A stretch of DNA of 62,399 bases, filler included, from Rhabdomonas costata (lineage: Eukaryota): assembly GCA_019059605.1 (NCBI GenBank). It is 31 parts of 31 records of this genome, joined end to end, with 100 filler letters (N's around TTAATTAATTAA, not from the genome) between each part and the next. Parts side by side here need not be neighbours in the genome. Positions count along the whole stretch, not along the records: positions 52,404 to 54,318 come from JAHMHO010007422.1; 30 more parts are not named here. The stretch is one strand, 5' to 3'. Of this stretch, positions 4,897-62,179 are shown one piece after another. Position 1 is the first letter of the stretch. Every line of letters begins with the position of its first letter. Under the pieces are notes generated by a model that was not told where the DNA came from, did no database searches, and saw nothing but the letters and a program-made list of their open reading frames with translations. The position numbers and the translations under genes are program-made.

Positions 4897-5096
4897 TTTG
4901 GTGCGACCTACCGGCCTCAGCAGTGTGAATTTCTTTTGTACCTCCTACCGTGTGTCCATTTTTTCTACCGACGTTGAAAGAAAAGGGGTTTATTTCGAAG
5001 GTTTTTGTTTATTTCTACCGCTTTTTTACTACCGGTTTCCATGGAGAAGAAATTCTTTTGAAAAAGGAACCCCCACGCACACATACCGAGAGAAAA

Positions 5097-5950
5097 ATGA
5101 GTGCACCCCCGCAGTCCCCTACCGTGCCCCATGCAGCCCCGTCTTCTTTTAACGAAGCCCCCGCAGTCACCAGACCCTTTACCCCCGAACTACTGGGAGA
5201 AGCAATCACACTAATGGCTCAGAACCAGACCCATCTAATGACCATGATGCAAAACTTTGTACAAGCTACCGGTGCCTCTTTCCAAGCGGTCTCAGGCTCA
5301 CGTTCAGCTGAAGCCTCAGGACTCAGGAAACTACAGGAAAAAGATCCTGAGTTCGAAAAGTTTGACGGCAAGCTAGAACACTTCATGTACTGGCTGGTTA
5401 GAGTGAACGAAAGAAAATGCCAGCGAGAAGTCCCAGACCAAGTTGCCATCCGCTACGCCCAGATGGCCTTTGGAGACGCGGGACGAGGCATCTTCGCTAA
5501 CGGGCAAACCTTCACCTCATGGGACCAGTTCACAGACTTGCTAAAGGCGCAACGCAACCACCTTGTGCAAGCAAGGTCGGGATACAGTCCAACGCGCGCC
5601 GGATCCAGAGGCATCACCACCTCCACAGGTAGGAGCCACGTAAGTGTTCCCGCAATATCGTTAGAGTGTGACACGCACTACCTAACGAAGCACTACCATT
5701 ATCAACATATCTACGAGCTAACGCACAATGTTAAGATGTACAACGGAGATTACCCTGCCTACCAAGCTCAGTTCAAAACATACGTGGATGCCCTACCGGA
5801 ACGCTTCCGTACACCCAACTTGGTTTTTGATTTCATGCAAGGCATGGAGTCCTGGCTTGCTCACAAAGTTGCCAAGAAGAACCCCGTCACCATTGAAGGC
5901 GCTTACGAGATTGGATGGGAAATTTTCAGGGAGCCAAGACCACCCCACAG
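5097..5950 (+). mobile_element. gag: Ty3/gypsy LTR retrotransposon gag (3'-truncated by contig end), with a 126-bp in-frame insertion
   Basis: Intronless ORF after the PBS with capsid-like motifs: FEKFDGK..FMYWL, FTSWDQFTDLLK, Y.AQF..Y, FMQGM..WL...V....P.TIE.AY. Confidence 0.8.
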
Positions 5951-49586: not shown

Positions 49587-52403
49587 TTGACCGATAAAAG
49601 CGAAACGTTTGTAACGAAAAAGCTGAGGGTGGGAGGGGCATGGGGTGTACGTTTCCTCCATCCAATGCTTCCACACACCGACACCCCCCTCTCCTCAGAA
49701 ATGAGGGCCGCCGCTGAACACAGACTGGTACCCAGGTACCTGATGCGCACCCCATTGATTCACGCCAAAATAGATACGGGCTCTCTACCACCATTTGACT
49801 CCAACATATATTAAGCTCACTATAATACTGTGCCTCTGCGAGGGTGCTCCAAGGGGAGCGGGTATGGGGTGGAGCGGTGTGGCAGCCCCGCCCCTACCGT
49901 TAAGGTATGGCAAGCAGTTCAGGAGCTTGGGCATTCCCAGACCAACAATGAAAAAATGAAACAGGACATGCTTTTTCCACTCCCCATTTTCAATGTTTGC
50001 AAAATGACAAAGCGGCGGCAGCATCCATCTCATCGGCAACAAGAGGACAGGAGGTATTTTGTTTTTGAAGGGCGACCTGAGTTAATAAAAGGATCCAAGT
50101 CACAAACTACCTTTGACCTTAAGAAGGCAATGCGGTGCTCTCAGAAAGTCCCAAACCAACAGACACACAATATAACAAGCGGGTGGCCAAGCGAGCTGTA
50201 CTAGGCCACAACAGCTGAAGTCATGGCGGGCCTCAATGCCGTTGCAAATCAGACGCATACAACCACCCAACCCAAACACACCCACCACNNNNNNNNNNNN
50301 NNNNNNNNNNNNNNNNNNNNNNNNNNNNNNNNTTAATTAATTAANNNNNNNNNNNNNNNNNNNNNNNNNNNNNNNNNNNNNNNNNNNNGGTGTGGGTGGG
50401 ATACCAGGTGCCCACAGTGTGGTTTGGCTGGGGAATAAGAAAAAGCCATGATTCCCAACAGAACACGGATGCTCCGTCAGTAGGTCGGTCGGTCTGTGGC
50501 TCCATTCCGATACAGAATATCCATGGAGCACAAACTCCCGGCTGAGGGTGTAAGGACTAGCACTTCAAGAGGTCTGCTGGAAAGACGTCAAGCCAGCTTC
50601 GGACGCGTCCCTTCCCGTGTCTTCTTTTCTCTGATCGCTTCTCTTTGGACTTGCCCGTGATTCCCAGCCATTCATGGAAGAAAAGAACAAACGTTAGCCA
50701 CCCCCTATCGTGTGGTTCCCTATGTGGCTCACAGGTGGGCGAGACCCGGGGAACGAAGCGCACCTTTGAGCAGCTGTAGCAGCGCTGAGCTGGCGGGGCT
50801 GTGCTGTGTTTCATTTACCCCCTTCCCCGGACGTGCGGTCGACATTGAACCGTGGTTTTTTTCTCGCGAAAACCCTTACTCTTGCACAAGACTCGGTTGG
50901 TTGATGATAGTGGTGCACTAAAACGTTGCTCGTTCTTCTACCATCCCTCATCAACATACACACTCACGCCAGAACGAACCAGAAGTGAATTTTCGGTTTT
51001 CACCTTTTGCCGAATCTCTTTTTGCACCTTTCTGAACCCTTGTGGGACGTTGGGCCATCCGACATCTGCAGTCCCCTGGCGCAGCTGCCGTCGTTCGTTG
51101 GGATGCATGTCATAGCCACTTTCCCAGACCGAAGTCACTGGCAGGAGAGTTCTTTACTGATCTTTGCGCCTGAGAGAAGCAGAGAAAGCATCGGTTCTCG
51201 TCCCGTGCACGCTTGAGTGAGACGAAAGAACAACTACCAGAAACGATGGGTGGTGGTCGGTTTTGGTCGCCCCCCCCCTTCCTACCAGATAAGTCGCCTC
51301 CGCCTTTCCCCTTTGGCCGCATGTCAGTCTGGAGGTGAGTGAAGAGGAAGGGGTGAGCGTGGGGTCTAATCCGAGCAATGGCTGCGAAGCTGCAGACCGT
51401 GGCGTTCTTTTTCCGCATCGACCGAGCCCCCACCGGGGAGTGGGTGTGCACTCTTTGACGCCATATTTCTGTTGACCCCCCCCCCTCCTCCGTCCCTCAC
51501 TAGGATTTCCGGTCGTTAGGTCGTGCGATACCGTTGTTTTTGGGCAGTTTTGACTAATTATGAGTGTGCACCCCGCGAAATTCCCACCGGTATGCAATAC
51601 CGAGATTGCGATGGACGTCGAGAAAGACGTCCTCTGTCGACCAATTACACCAATTACTCTTTACAGCGACTTGGGAGGCGCCTTCCATGGTAAGGAACTT
51701 GTAAAATTAAAGCTGAAAACTGGCCTTCCGTGATGCAAAAGACCCTAGGCCTGCTTCGGCATAGCCTTCTGTAAGAAACCGGTTGAGGTCTACCATTTTC
51801 ACTCAGGAGTTTCCGGACTGCTCTGCAATTCTGCAGCACTACAGGAAAGCAGGTTTCAGCACTCTCCATTTTATCTTTTCTCATCCCTTGGTGGGGTCAT
51901 CCCCTCCCGCCTCTCTCCCCCTCATTGGGGGCTTCGGAGTTGCAGCAAAGTAGCCGATTATCTTAATGATCTTGTCGTTGGGGAGAAGCTCTTCCCAGCT
52001 CATCAGGCACCACAGCACACTTTTCGGAAAAGAATCTTCAGCATACGAAGAATCCGTCCATCGTCCATCGTATACAAGGCTTGCTCAACGGCGCAGCAGC
52101 AGCCGTTGCAATTACCAGTTCGACACGCAAAGCTTCTGTGATAACCTCATGATAACCTCACGATATCGCCGTGGACACGTTAATTTAAATTACCAAAAAC
52201 CTGAAGCAAAACATGCTGAAACTCCTAGAATAACAGAAAAACAAAGACCTATTGAATTCACAAGCAGACTATCTCACGGTATCATTGTTCTTCAAAACCA
52301 ACANNNNNNNNNNNNNNNNNNNNNNNNNNNNNNNNNNNNNNNNNNNNTTAATTAATTAANNNNNNNNNNNNNNNNNNNNNNNNNNNNNNNNNNNNNNNNN
52401 NNN

Positions 52404-53322
52404 ACCACCTTCCAAAAGAGCATATGTGCCCACACCTCCGCGACTGAGTGCCTGCCGTAAAGCTTCTATCAGCCGCCGTCGTCAGCTGGTCAATTTATAT
52501 CGTGGCAAAAAAATTGTCGTGGAAAGTCGCTGGGGACCGAAGGCCAGGCCAGTCCTGCTGACAAGAAGAGAATATCCTTCGTGTGCATCCATTGCCAGGA
52601 AGCTGGCTTGTGCACATAATGTACAGGTTAGCTCTATGACTGTGCGGCGTGATCTGCGTTTTGCCGGTGCTACTGCTCGCCGACGGCCAAAGGCCGCTCG
52701 TCTGAGGATGGGAGATTGTAAGCAGAGACTGTTGTTTTGCAGACGAGTAAAGGCAGGTCTCAGCTGTACTGACCTTCTGTTCAGTGATGAGAAGTACTTT
52801 GACTGCAATGACCACGGTTGTGCTTGGGAGTGGGTTATGAAGAATGAGTCGGTGCAGCCGCTTGGTCGTGATCGGTGGGCACCAAAAGTTTCTGTATGGG
52901 GATTGATCGGAGTTGGGGTTAAAAAACTTGTGATCCTTCCACAAGGGACCTTAACTGCGGAAGGATACCGCGATCGCTGTCTGAATAAGTCCCTGGATGT
53001 TCTGAAAGGCAAGGTTCTGATGCATGACGGTGCGAGAGTGCACATGTCAAGCGTAGTTGGGGCTTACCTGAGCAAGAAGAAAGTTAAGGTTCTTGAGCAC
53101 TAGCCTCCGCGCTCCCCCGATCTGAATCCTATCGAGAATTTGTGGGGAATCCTTTCCCGCAAAGTGAGCGACTATGGACCAACAGACGAAAAAGAGCTAG
53201 TGAGGTTTGTGCGAAAAGCGTGGGATGAATACCCACAAAGTGAGGTTGATAAGCTCGTGCTGAGCTTTCAGCGCCGCGTTGTACAGTGCATTGCTAACAA
53301 AGGAAGAAAGGTGAATCTGTGA
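52404..53322 (+). CDS. Tc1/mariner-IS630 superfamily DD35E transposase, main part (in-frame TAG at 53101-53103)
   Basis: VSSMTVRRDL (HTH), LFSDEKYF (D1), VWGLIG, LMHDGARVH (D2), EH*PPRSPDLNPIENLWG (E, 35 residues after D2), SFQRRVVQCIANKG; ends TGA at 53322. Confidence 0.93.
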
Positions 53323-53521
53323 TGGTGATTACGTGCGTATATTTTGCAGAAGCTGGAACGGAGAGGTCTTTCTAAGCACAAGTGTAAGGTTATGCGATAG
53401 TTTGTGACGAATAGATTTTGGGTGTGTGGATTGCACGCCGAAGGCGCGGAAATTTTTTTATGAATTGGCCCTTTTAGATTCGTCTTGTCTTTGCCTGCTG
53501 TGTTTTTGTTATACATGTGAC

Positions 53522-53983
53522 ATGCCCAACAACTCGCTCCGCCATGAATGGGGGAGTCAGCCTACCAGTGGTAGAGATAACCGCACTACCAATCGGCGCT
53601 GGAGTAAGGACCGCAAAAGAGGCAGGCCTGCTCAATCTGGTGCGGAGCGCATGAGGAAGCTGAGGCTTAAAAAGACCCGTGTGCAGCTGCGAATTGAGAC
53701 TGCAGTCCTCTTTGCCCGCCGTGAAATTAAGGCAGGACGGTTACCTGCTCGCCGCAATCCCAAAAAGCATGTGTTGAAGTCAGGGCAGCACGTTCGGTAC
53801 TGCCCCCTTGGGTATGATGAGCCTGTGCTGAGAGGCACTGTAGTGAAACTTTTTCAGTCGCCCGCCGATCGTAAATCGCAGTTTGCGTGCAAGCTTGTGA
53901 TTGTGCAGCGTGATCGGAAGGACCTGGAAAGGGACAAGCGTCTGTCGAAGCTTGTTGCTCTCCCTCCTGCAAATGTATACTGA
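53522..53983 (+). CDS. Uncharacterized 153-aa basic protein (AT-hook-like KRGRP; C-terminal SH3/KOW/Tudor-like segment)
   Basis: Intact intronless ATG-TGA ORF filling the non-transposase part of the unit. R/K-rich. Motifs RKRGRP..SGAERMRKLR and LKSGQHVRY...V.RGTVVKL. Confidence 0.7.
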   Translation: MPNNSLRHEWGSQPTSGRDNRTTNRRWSKDRKRGRPAQSGAERMRKLRLKKTRVQLRIETAVLFARREIKAGRLPARRNPKKHVLKSGQHVRYCPLGYDEPVLRGTVVKLFQSPADRKSQFACKLVIVQRDRKDLERDKRLSKLVALPPANVY

Positions 53984-54069
53984 TGTGCTTCTACTGACTG
54001 GTTTATCTGCAGCGTCACAGCTTTTTTGTTCGTCCAATGCCTGTTTCTTATGCATGCCCAAAGGGCAGA

Positions 54070-54318
54070 ATGACCGATGTCGGATTTTATCTGTGTCATG
54101 AATGGCACCGGCAGGGTAGAACAATCAATCGCATCGCTAAGGATTTAAAGGTTGCCTGGGATACGGTTCGCCATCATCTTCGGCAATCAAAACCACCTTC
54201 CAAAAGAGCATATGTGCCCACACCTCCGCGACTGAGTGCCTGCCGTAAAGCTTCTATCAGCCGCCGTCGTCAGCTGGTCAATTTATATCGTGGCAAAAAA
54301 ATTGTCGTGGAAAGTCGC
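54070..54318 (+). CDS. N-terminus of the same transposase (first HTH); continues at 52404 via the terminal overlap
   Basis: MTDV...WHRQGRTINRIAKDLKVAWDTVRHHL is a paired-like HTH, in frame with the 52426 ORF through the repeat. Full length ~346 codons. Confidence 0.88.
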
Positions 54319-54418
54319 NNNNNNNNNNNNNNNNNNNNNNNNNNNNNNNNNNNNNNNNNNNNTTAATTAATTAANNNNNNNNNNNNNNNNNNNNNNNNNN
54401 NNNNNNNNNNNNNNNNNN

Positions 54419-60218: not shown

Positions 60219-61092
60219 CCAGCACTGGGAGGGAAGACTGCGCCTCTCGGACACCTTCTTCGTTCGAAGTCTCTTCCAGTGATCCACGTGCTGACAAAGG
60301 GCACCCATTGCTGCGAAGTCCACAATCCCCGGAGGGAGAAGCCCTCCCCCACTCCCGTAGCCCCGCAAGTCCGAACACCCCAACNNNNNNNNNNNNNNNN
60401 NNNNNNNNNNNNNNNNNNNNNNNNNNNNTTAATTAATTAANNNNNNNNNNNNNNNNNNNNNNNNNNNNNNNNNNNNNNNNNNNNGGTTGTGGTGGATCTC
60501 GATCATGGCCACGATGCACCGCACGCTCCACTGCCCATCCTTGGGGTGACGTCCGAGGTTGAGCTCCCGGAGAGCCTCCCGAGGATTGTTAGAATATCTG
60601 TGCCATCATGACAAGAACGAAGTTTACATGGCAAACACGCCATACCATAACATCACAGCCCTAGTGTGTGCGTACCCATGGCCGTTTCTTTGGCTGAATG
60701 CAATTAAGAAACCAACGCACAGATCTGTCAAGGCTGGTTGTACAATCCCCTAAGGAATGCTAGCACCGTTCATTGCCTGCAATGTTCATGCGCCTACATT
60801 CCTAATTAATTATGTTTCCGGGTGGGGCGGCAGGGATGCCATGCATTCGGGGTGAAACATGCAAAGCGCTTTTAAACTAACGACCCACTAGTATCTCGTT
60901 CAATGATTTTCAGTAGTAAAATGGGAACCGACATGGAGAGGTTTCACAGCATCTTGAGACCAGTGAGATACAACTGTTCAACACCTCACTCTCACCCCCC
61001 CAAAAATAAATAGCACCATTTTTTATCGTTTTTTACCTGATGTGCATGCATCAATGAGGCGCGTGTAGGACAGGCCGGTCTATCAAACAGAC

Positions 61093-62179
61093 CTATAGAA
61101 GAGCCCTTTGGCGTAGTGTAGCCCAGGATCCATGCGGGCGCGGTTCAGGGCCTTCTCCGCAGCCTTAAAGAACTTCGGGCACTCATACAGCCGCCCCGCG
61201 CGTCGGAGCAGCTGCACAAACTGCACCTGAAGTGGGACGGCACCGACACCGCACATCAATGACCATGCATCCTCTTGTCCAATTCGGTGAAGTCGGGAAA
61301 TAGACAAAACCAAGGTCATATTGAAACAGCTGACTGGTTCTCTGGCCAGTGATGTCCCACACAAAGACAAACACGCTTGCAAAGGGCAGATAGACGATGT
61401 CGAACAGACAAGCGAGGTAGTACAGCAATGAACACAACTGCAAAACTGCGATACCGCTGCACCAAGGCACTCAGAGAGAAGGGGCGCAAACGAGAGAATT
61501 CTCACCAGCGCTTCATGGTTGTTGGGCTTCTTCTCCAGAAGCTGCTGGAAGTGGTATATGGCATCCTCAAACTTGTTCTTCCTGTTGTTTTTCATGCATC
61601 CATTACAACCGAACACAACGTTTGCGATGATCAACACGCGGAGGTACTGGATGAAACGCTGACGGACCACATGCTGTGAGCAAATAGGCATTCGGCCTGG
61701 GAGAAGGGAAGCACTTCAGAGAGGGTAAGATACCCACAAACCCATAGTTAGCTCCATACCCCAACGGACGTTCTGAGATGCGACACTTCCGACAATTGGG
61801 CTACAGTGCCAAACGTTCGAGAGGATACCAAGATATCAGTGCAGAAGCGGAGAGCGGAGCACCACACAAATAAGTGAATGAAGAACTCTGCAAGGATAGA
61901 CAACAGGGATTTGTGACATGGGAAACCGCTAGAAATGGAAATACAAATCGACATCGCAGAAAAGGAAAGCAATTTTTGTGAGTGCATTGACAGTCAAGTC
62001 TTTGTGGAGAGGGAGGGGGGAACGAAGCTGCATGCTGCCGGATACCGGAACATCAGGTCGGCGAGCATCATCGTGGCCTCCTCGTTGGAGGGATCCACGC
62101 GGAGCAGGGCGTTGCACTGCAGCTCACAGCCGTCGAGCTCCCCCTTGCGGAGGTAGAGCTTGGCCAGCGCCAGCATGCT
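61093..62179 (-). CDS. TTC21B: Intraflagellar transport protein IFT139 / TTC21B (TPR protein); exons 62179-62046, 61581-61506, 61226-61093
   Basis: MLALAKLYL...DGCELQCNALLRVDPSNEEATMMLADLMFR|KNKFEDAIYHFQQLLEKKPNNHEAL|VQFVQLLRRAGRL...DPGLHYAKGLFY matches the conserved TTC21/IFT139 segment. GT-AG introns are in phase. Confidence 0.9.

Follow-up and report, generated by a model that had tools for sequence, protein, structure and literature searches.

A Tc1/IS630-type transposase cassette without terminal inverted repeats, probably one unit of a chromosomal tandem array

A single contig, positions 52404-54318 of a 62,399-base stretch of Rhabdomonas costata DNA (GCA_019059605.1; the whole stretch is hereafter called the window), was examined in the present study. 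We interpret it as one repeat unit of a head-to-tail cassette that is built around a Tc1/IS630-superfamily transposase, lacks terminal inverted repeats (TIRs) and, on balance, most likely derives from a chromosomal tandem array; what is seen is at least one full copy and part of the next. The feature is real and represents an unusual Tc1-like lineage that is apparently new to the literature. An earlier note on this DNA had left the choice between a circle and a tandem cassette. The cyclic unit that it described is present and relatives favour the array, while nothing tested shows a free circle. Of the two, the tandem array is the likelier form of the window unit.

The 1788-bp unit and its two genes

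The first and last 127 nt of the contig (52404-52530 and 54192-54318, plus strand) are 100% identical and lie 1788 nt apart, as the earlier note had stated, and none of the other 30 window contigs has a terminal overlap. The first copy falls inside the transposase coding sequence. Because the overlap is inside a gene and homologues align without a gap across the join, the circular order rather than the linear contig is the meaningful one. In this order the 1788-bp cycle runs on one strand throughout and comprises ORF2 (open reading frame 2; 53522-53983), a 53-nt spacer leading to the probable transposase start (53984-54036, delimited by translation and N-terminal homology), a DD35E transposase, and a 199-nt spacer back to ORF2 (53323-53521) with a CGCC-GAA-GGCG hairpin at 53436-53446 followed by a run of seven T at 53453-53459. 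A k-mer length of 127 is a common assembler setting, and the exact 127-nt overlap fits a cycle printed with a k-length overlap, in line with the assembler explanation given previously.

No inverted repeat longer than 13 nt was found in the circularised (doubled) unit, the best inverted matches being 9-13 nt and at chance level, and CAGTG and CACTG are confined to coding sequence; the absence of a TIR pair and of a CAGTG-type junction from the spacers, as given in the earlier note, is thereby confirmed. Minus-strand ORFs of 82-187 aa have no Pfam match and were treated as antisense noise. Neither strand of the unit encodes a Rep-like family of the rolling-circle, CRESS-DNA type, and the DDE transposase and ORF2 are its real ORFs. 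No Rfam family matched the window at gathering score, and within the contig only a chance-level match to mir-500 was obtained (E 3.2).

The transposase frame crosses the junction. Positions 54037-54318 (plus strand) encode the N-terminal 94 residues, including the first helix-turn-helix (HTH) region, and end in ...PPSKRAYVPT...VVESR, and the frame from 52405 onward opens with PPSKRAYVPT... and continues in frame, 42 residues being common to both ends; past the overlap the gene resumes at 52531. Full-length homologues align without a gap across the circular join. The remainder (52405-53322, plus strand) carries the HTH_Tnp_Tc3_2 and DDE_3 domains and stops at TGA 53320-53322. The catalytic triad (D 52786-52788, D 53026-53028 and E 53134-53136; D128, D208 and E244 in the alignment) is invariant in all 14 aligned rows, with 35 residues from the second D to E. 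The ATG at 54037 is a likelier start than that at 54070, because the conserved N-terminal motif (..Y.CPKGRMTD..) begins upstream of 54070 in the homologues P0004, P0009 and P0010. The spacers of 199 and 86 bp reported earlier are correct for the coordinates given there, which start the gene at 54070, but with the likelier start the second spacer shortens to 53 nt.

The claim that the transposase reads through the junction holds for the frame, which is not however open: an in-frame TAG (53101-53103) stands between the second D and E, at the Trp of the WP.RSPDLNPIE motif, where homologues read W in 13 of 13 cases, and truncates the protein before the catalytic Glu. As everything downstream still aligns, the TAG is one recent nonsense change or an error, and by comparison with the homologues it is best described as a single nonsense codon of the TGG-to-TAG type. 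The window copy of the transposase is thus probably inactive, its stop lying before the catalytic Glu. An alternative code in which TAG is a sense codon was considered and rejected: both genes end in TGA and we know of no genetic code that reads TAG as Trp, which leaves mutation or error.

Profile matches place the transposase in the Tc1/mariner-IS630 superfamily. DDE_3 (PF13358) matched at E 5.5e-12 with 46.2 bits against a cut-off of 28.6, the match crossing the TAG read as X. HTH_Tnp_Tc3_2 matched at E 2.6e-07, scoring 31.5 bits, equal to its cut-off of 31.5, for the 232 aa that precede the TAG and 31.2 bits for the read-through, and the first HTH gave weak matches (E 0.03-0.4). When the family profile was compared with solved structures, the Sleeping Beauty catalytic domain (5cr4) ranked first at E 7.4e-36, followed by SETMAR and Mos1. 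The prokaryotic IS630 model NF033545 (NCBIfam) scored 47.7 bits with the window transposase and 66.2 bits with P0004, both below its cut-off of 100. The protein resembles Tc1, Sleeping Beauty and Mos1 in its size of about 350 aa, N-terminal HTH, DDE_3 core, D/D/E triad and SPDLNPIENLW motif around the Glu.

ORF2 (53522-53983, plus strand, 153 aa) is open, as the earlier note had it, and starts where most members of its family start. That family, aligned end to end, has 14 full-length representatives of 106-200 aa among 1.84 billion representative proteins, with no fused longer form among these 14 relatives and no match of ORF2 in Pfam or NCBIfam; ORF2 represents a real but rare protein family. 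Its AlphaFold (AF2) model (predicted local distance difference test, pLDDT, 77.8) falls into three parts, of which the N-terminal one (residues 1-31) is basic and disordered, the next a helical hairpin (40-70) and the last an SH3-like barrel (about 79-153). Compared with Tudor, chromo and KOW domains the barrel reached a best Z of 5.7 over 50-57 residues, which is within the range of common arrangements; a Foldseek search against PDB gave a best E of 0.07 and nothing at E ≤ 0.001, and the best Atlas score of 0.77 was under the useful range. A Tudor/chromo/KOW-like barrel is accordingly only a lead from the predicted model, and no nuclease signature was found in the window ORF2.

The association of ORF2 with the transposase is seen directly in one metagenome relative (L002), in which the ORF2 C-terminal domain is encoded immediately upstream of the transposase (E 3.6e-10). 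Other members of the ORF2 family lie on contigs that match those of transposase-cluster members in size and source (2004, 2106, 2303 and 2125 nt), and co-occurrence on such matching is circumstantial. A predicted complex of P0010 (transposase) with P0147 (ORF2-type), a pair assumed to be cognate from size and source only, scored 0.00, which is evidence neither way.

The 62,399-base window consists of 31 unrelated contigs of 1,910-1,936 bases each, in near size order, separated by artificial 100-nt linkers that hold no biology (N runs around TTAATTAATTAA), including those at 52304-52403 and 54319-54418 on either side of the contig under study. This contig stands alone and the flanking contigs carry no information on its genomic context. 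Since the window is a chain of unrelated contigs, arguments from neighbours or across a linker are unsafe, and the contrast drawn earlier with intron-dense host genes says nothing about context. Other contigs of the window show the source to be a eukaryote, with a Ty3 capsid-like ORF and TTC21-type repeats. The former match (ORF 4950-5948, plus strand, E 4.9e-05, below gathering score) marks retrotransposon remains, and an ORF on the adjoining contig (54419-56333, minus strand) has a translated stretch that we take to be typical of Ty3/gypsy RNase H regions. The ORF at 61083-61691 (minus strand) matches the TTC21 fifth ARM-repeat and TPR domains (E 2e-18), as in an intraflagellar-transport-type protein, from which it seems that the source organism has flagella or cilia.

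Relatives, partner genes and spacers

A total of 782 proteins matched the transposase at E ≤ 0.001, the best being 58-67% identical and nearly all encoded on contigs of 1.2-2.5 kb. One weak match was found in prokaryote genomes representing 185,579 species, and no relative among 2.9 million viral contigs (IMG/VR), and by these searches the lineage is essentially absent from prokaryote genomes and from viral contigs. We compared 80 metagenome contigs (numbered from L001) with the window unit, giving 81 loci. Direct redundancy between contig ends was present in 11 of the 18 closest loci (L001-L018), including exact overlaps of 90-123 nt (L001, L002, L003, L009 and L017), a repeat of the first 126 nt at 1799-1924 (L007), near-exact redundancy (131 nt at 99.2% in L004 and 106 nt at 98.1% in L013), diverged redundancy (154 nt at 84.4% in L006 and 608 nt at 90.7% in L010) and a 62-nt pair lying internally (L012). 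Two further loci fit a head-to-tail order: L015 begins at its 5' end with the C-terminal part of a transposase gene and closes at its 3' end with an N-terminal part, both on one strand, and L013 and L014 are circularly permuted versions of each other. In clean contrast, many of the more distant loci are flanked by inverted repeats of the classical kind (among them L026, L031, L038, L050, L053, L056 and L079).

For a maximum-likelihood tree 40 rows were used; the remaining 41 of the 81 loci had a single frame covering <200 profile positions and were left out. The tree is split with 100/100 support into 17 rows that include the window (11 with direct redundancy and none with TIRs) and 23 other rows (eight with TIRs and one, L048, with direct redundancy); the bootstrap had yet to settle fully, and rows that are related do not count as independent. 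Weak inverted pairs in L001 (38 nt, 79%) and L009 (33 nt, 91%) do not bound the unit, and none of the 17 clade rows exceeded the TIR threshold. The nearest relatives are consequently not ordinary TIR-bounded Tc1 elements; relatives of that ordinary kind, lacking ORF2, would have told against the proposal of the earlier note. A transposase ORF of at least 336 aa is kept in most of L001-L018, which are not simply dead satellites. Differences between the L003 and L005 transposases are mainly synonymous (ratio of non-synonymous to synonymous substitution rates, dN/dS, 0.10 at dS 0.21), and in at least this pair the transposase is under purifying selection. Outside the clade, L048 (1-4719) lies in a larger tandem structure in which copies of 95-97% identity recur at periods of about 1.8 and 2.6 kb, and it also bears 30-nt inverted repeats; TIR-bearing copies within a duplicated block are a possible explanation.

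Several relatives contain neighbouring copies that are not identical. The redundant stretch lies within the transposase gene in L006, L010 and L013 and reaches the end of the partner ORF in L004, with the copies differing by 1-16%, and L010 is a decayed array in which both the transposase and the small ORF are broken. Other relatives leave the unit at a precise point, which gives a precise junction in one subclade. The contig L005, which is 92-94% identical to the cyclic L003, tracks the L003 cycle as far as ...CACACTTT, immediately beyond which it diverges and enters a gene for WD40 repeats (Pfam WD40, E 7.9e-63). L007, whose transposase is 49% identical to that of L005, departs after ...CATACTTT, past its 1799-1924 repeat, and its next 29 nt are identical at 28 of 29 positions to the start of the L005 gene. 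An ACTTT junction motif just upstream of the partner-ORF ATG is common to L003, L006, L007 and L010, and the exit points of L005 and L007 can be read as ACTT then TA (two cases, with an ambiguous boundary), a TA pattern relevant to target-site duplication that L012 does not share and for which the window contig offers no flanks. L012 has 62-nt direct repeats (162-223 and 1822-1883, 98% identical) with a partner ORF and transposase between them and unlike sequence outside both, and resembles either an element bounded by direct repeats or a single unit followed by a short part of another. Neither the L012 repeat, at its ends, nor the spacers of the window unit showed TIRs. Chromosomal head-to-tail copies are favoured because of these diverged neighbours, the contigs leaving the unit and the bounded monomer L012, all in relatives.

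Some further observations concern the same junctions. Near-identical WD40 gene starts adjoin the cassettes at different distances from the ATG in L005 (1494-2702) and L007 (1925-1953), and the WD40 gene of L005 has internal 129-nt repeats that are 85-88% identical. The idea that the ...ACTTT junction is a relic spliced leader was raised and dropped.

A second ORF directly upstream of the transposase and on the same strand is common in the clade and belongs to several families. An ORF2-type partner occurs in the window unit and L002, and the partner in circularised L004 is weakly ORF2-like (E 0.0022 in a small search). L003, L006 and L007 have a basic ORF of about 90 aa; homology of these ORFs to ORF2 was rejected at this sensitivity (hhalign probability 0.5%). 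In L009 (265-1122) and L013 (618-1457) the upstream ORF encodes 280 aa with a GIY-YIG nuclease domain above gathering score (E 3.6e-05 and 1e-07, respectively), a DDE transposase and a homing-type nuclease thus being found together in 2.5-kb head-to-tail units. No partner ORF was found in L001. On this survey of ORFs the two-gene make-up is typical of the lineage yet variable within it, and the two-component element proposed earlier stands in so far as ORF2 is a conserved partner (L002), but the partner differs by subclade and the gene pair is not fixed.

The spacers following the transposase in L005 (1082-1496), L006 (137-553), L007 (1515-1927) and L010 (1396-1806) have a mean identity of 77%, more than the transposase genes of the same loci (about 65-71% by BLASTN). 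All four contain an invariant GCCC-CGCA-GGGC hairpin followed by a T run, to which the hairpin and T run of the window spacer (53436-53459) are similar, and a function for this feature is a lead. Rfam gave nothing at E ≤ 1 in L001-L018, where the relatives' spacers lie, and RNAalifold on the four spacers returned -25.8 kcal/mol with few informative pairs, too few sequences being available to judge.

Tandem array and competing explanations

In the explanation we favour, the assembler would have merged near-identical tandem copies into a cycle that it wrote out with an overlap of length k. The size of the array would change by unequal crossing-over, which can also shed unit-length circles. Together with a variable partner directed at DNA or chromatin (here basic and Tudor-like), the transposase would act at the unit junction or the conserved spacer instead of at inverted ends, and the window copy would be a recently inactivated member that relies on intact copies. 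A more far-reaching proposal, which we regard as speculative and rather doubtful, is an undescribed eukaryotic mobile element in which an end-less Tc1-like DDE transposase with a swappable partner would shuttle a 1.6-2.5-kb cassette between unit circles and chromosomal arrays, cutting and joining at a precise junction; to judge from the ORFs, its partners may be a Tudor-like basic protein, a small basic protein or a GIY-YIG nuclease.

A number of points weigh against placing the window unit in an array. Exact overlaps cannot tell an array from a circle, and the five exact overlaps of 90-123 nt are also expected from a circle; the window unit by itself would fit an array, a single copy with a short duplication or a free circle alike. 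The evidence for arrays and for exits from the unit comes from relatives with 30-51% identical transposases and not from the closest ones (58-67%, P0004-P0010), and the diverged 'neighbours' might conceivably have arisen where an assembler path crossed from one variant circle to another. Five of the 18 close loci (L005, L008, L011, L016 and L018) have no head-to-tail sign, the tree covers only 40 of the 81 rows and its labels depend on contigs that are possibly incomplete. A DDE transposase without recognisable end sequences has no demonstrated substrate here, and the nonsense codon at 53101-53103 could be a sequencing or consensus error.

The 1788-bp unit may alternatively be mainly extrachromosomal, as an episome or an excised or amplified circle, with integrated copies secondary. 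This is unlikely in our view, although the exact k-length overlap, the lack of a path out of the cycle in the window contig and the exact overlaps in five relatives (L001, L002, L003, L009 and L017) all fit it, as do small (1.6-2.5 kb), densely coding units with a basic partner protein and a conserved spacer hairpin. The same contig is expected from a tandem array, however, and relatives have diverged adjacent copies and contigs entering other DNA; moreover the unit has no replication-initiator gene, the viral contigs searched hold no relative and the transposase of the window copy is truncated. We also think it improbable that the unit is a dispersed element carrying long terminal direct repeats (LTDRs), similar to long terminal repeat (LTR) elements or to the LTDR-INT-LTDR arrangement of KolobokP, in which the assembler merged the repeats of many copies and pruned low-coverage flanks. 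L012 is exactly such a monomer, with its 62-nt repeats and differing sequence outside both, L007 fits with its 126-nt repeat followed by flank, and KolobokP is a DDE transposon with such an architecture and with multimers (PMC9587614). At k=127, however, the repeat could not be shorter than 127 nt, and no non-coding stretch other than the 199-nt spacer is that long. The redundancy or cut lies inside the transposase gene in L002, L006, L010, L013 and L015 and at the end of the partner ORF in L004, and redundancy or cuts inside genes require more than one unit rather than terminal repeats only.

Domestication, with the transposase and ORF2 as immobile host genes kept as a tandem array for expression, would agree with the purifying selection on a related transposase (dN/dS 0.10), the lack of transposon ends and the position of both genes on one strand with short spacers, and is nonetheless distinctly improbable. 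A nonsense codon precedes the catalytic Glu in the window copy, the L010 array is decayed, and the partner ORFs vary between subclades. Seven diverged in-clade loci also share one contig-name prefix (L004, L005, L007, L008, L010, L013 and L018), and two cassettes with 49% identical transposases adjoin near-identical downstream gene starts at different offsets, which suits multiple element families better than one host gene. Least probable is an artefact or contaminant, that is, a false cycle through a 127-nt repeat or the DNA of another organism. The unit is known from a single 1.9-kb contig in a highly fragmented assembly (31 contigs of about 1.9 kb) and its known close relatives are all metagenomic; against this, the join restores a full-length gene collinear with homologues and the same cyclic gene order recurs in independent assemblies. 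In trinucleotide composition the contig ranked 22 of 31 by distance from the other contigs, and is therefore no outlier on this weak test.

Comparison with known systems and significance

Against the Tc1/mariner-IS630 elements as a whole, the window unit differs in having no TIRs, the end structure by which that family is defined, like all 17 clade rows, in its second gene and in its head-to-tail or cyclic order in place of dispersed single units. The ciliate TBE and Tec elements and the Tc1/mariner elements of Paramecium are 4-5 kb long with long TIRs or telomere-like ends and several ORFs, and circular excision products of Tec are known. The present unit resembles these elements in combining a DDE transposase of the IS630/Tc1 kind with an extra ORF, but its ORFs are in the standard code without reassigned stops and no TIRs were found in it. 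In bacteria, head-to-tail abutted ends are a reactive transposition intermediate of the insertion sequences (IS) IS21, IS30 and IS911, and such tandem dimers or circles are a possible model for transposase action at the unit junction. The bacterial junctions join two inverted repeats, however, whereas the window unit has no such palindromic junction, and the present lineage is essentially absent from prokaryote genomes.

The closest published architecture is that of KolobokP (Kojima and Bao 2022, PMC9587614), reported there from animals, which combines a DDD/E transposase with a small homing endonuclease (His-Me finger). It has terminal direct repeats of 450-660 bp with short TIRs of their own and exists as monomers and as multimers sharing a repeat, for whose growth its authors proposed unequal crossover (PMC9587614). 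The likeness to the present lineage extends to a DDD/E transposase accompanied by a second, small protein, redundancy that is direct instead of inverted, monomers (L012) and multimers (L004, L006, L010 and L013) among relatives, the window showing only a cycle, and a homing-type nuclease partner whose counterpart here is the GIY-YIG protein of L009 and L013. KolobokP differs in superfamily (Kolobok versus DDE_3/Tc1-like), in having repeats with TIRs where none were seen here, in its His-Me finger partner, compared with a window ORF2 lacking any nuclease signature, and in its animal hosts.

Precise head-to-tail copies of a Tc1-like element are known from Bari1 in Drosophila melanogaster heterochromatin, with about 80 copies at h39, and a 2022 review knows of no described transposable element example comparable to this cluster (PMC8834629). 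Bari1 units bear TIRs, have a single gene and also occur dispersed, and their array occupies a single locus in a single species; in contrast, a whole diverged lineage without TIRs and with partner genes is found here. A search of open-access literature, a scope that does not extend to supplements and subscription journals, turned up no account of Tc1-like elements that lack TIRs and are organised as tandem or circular units, and the earlier note's term 'undescribed' holds within that scope.

In practical terms, small 'circular' transposase contigs in eukaryotic and metagenome assemblies should not be called plasmids or viruses without a read check. Head-to-tail Tc1-like arrays have so far been described for essentially one locus, Bari1, and DDE elements that combine direct repeats and a partner nuclease are on record from one other superfamily, that of KolobokP. 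The textbook example of a cut-and-paste enzyme that recognises inverted ends is the Tc1/mariner transposase. The present lineage keeps the transposase, which is intact and under purifying selection in at least one pair of relatives, but it has no inverted ends, is ordered head to tail and has changing partner genes. It would show either a new use of such enzymes, in junction action, array maintenance or circle formation, or else a path, taken repeatedly, by which transposons become tandem gene arrays. If the shuttle between circles and arrays were true, eukaryotes would have a counterpart to the pathway of IS circles or tandem dimers in bacteria.

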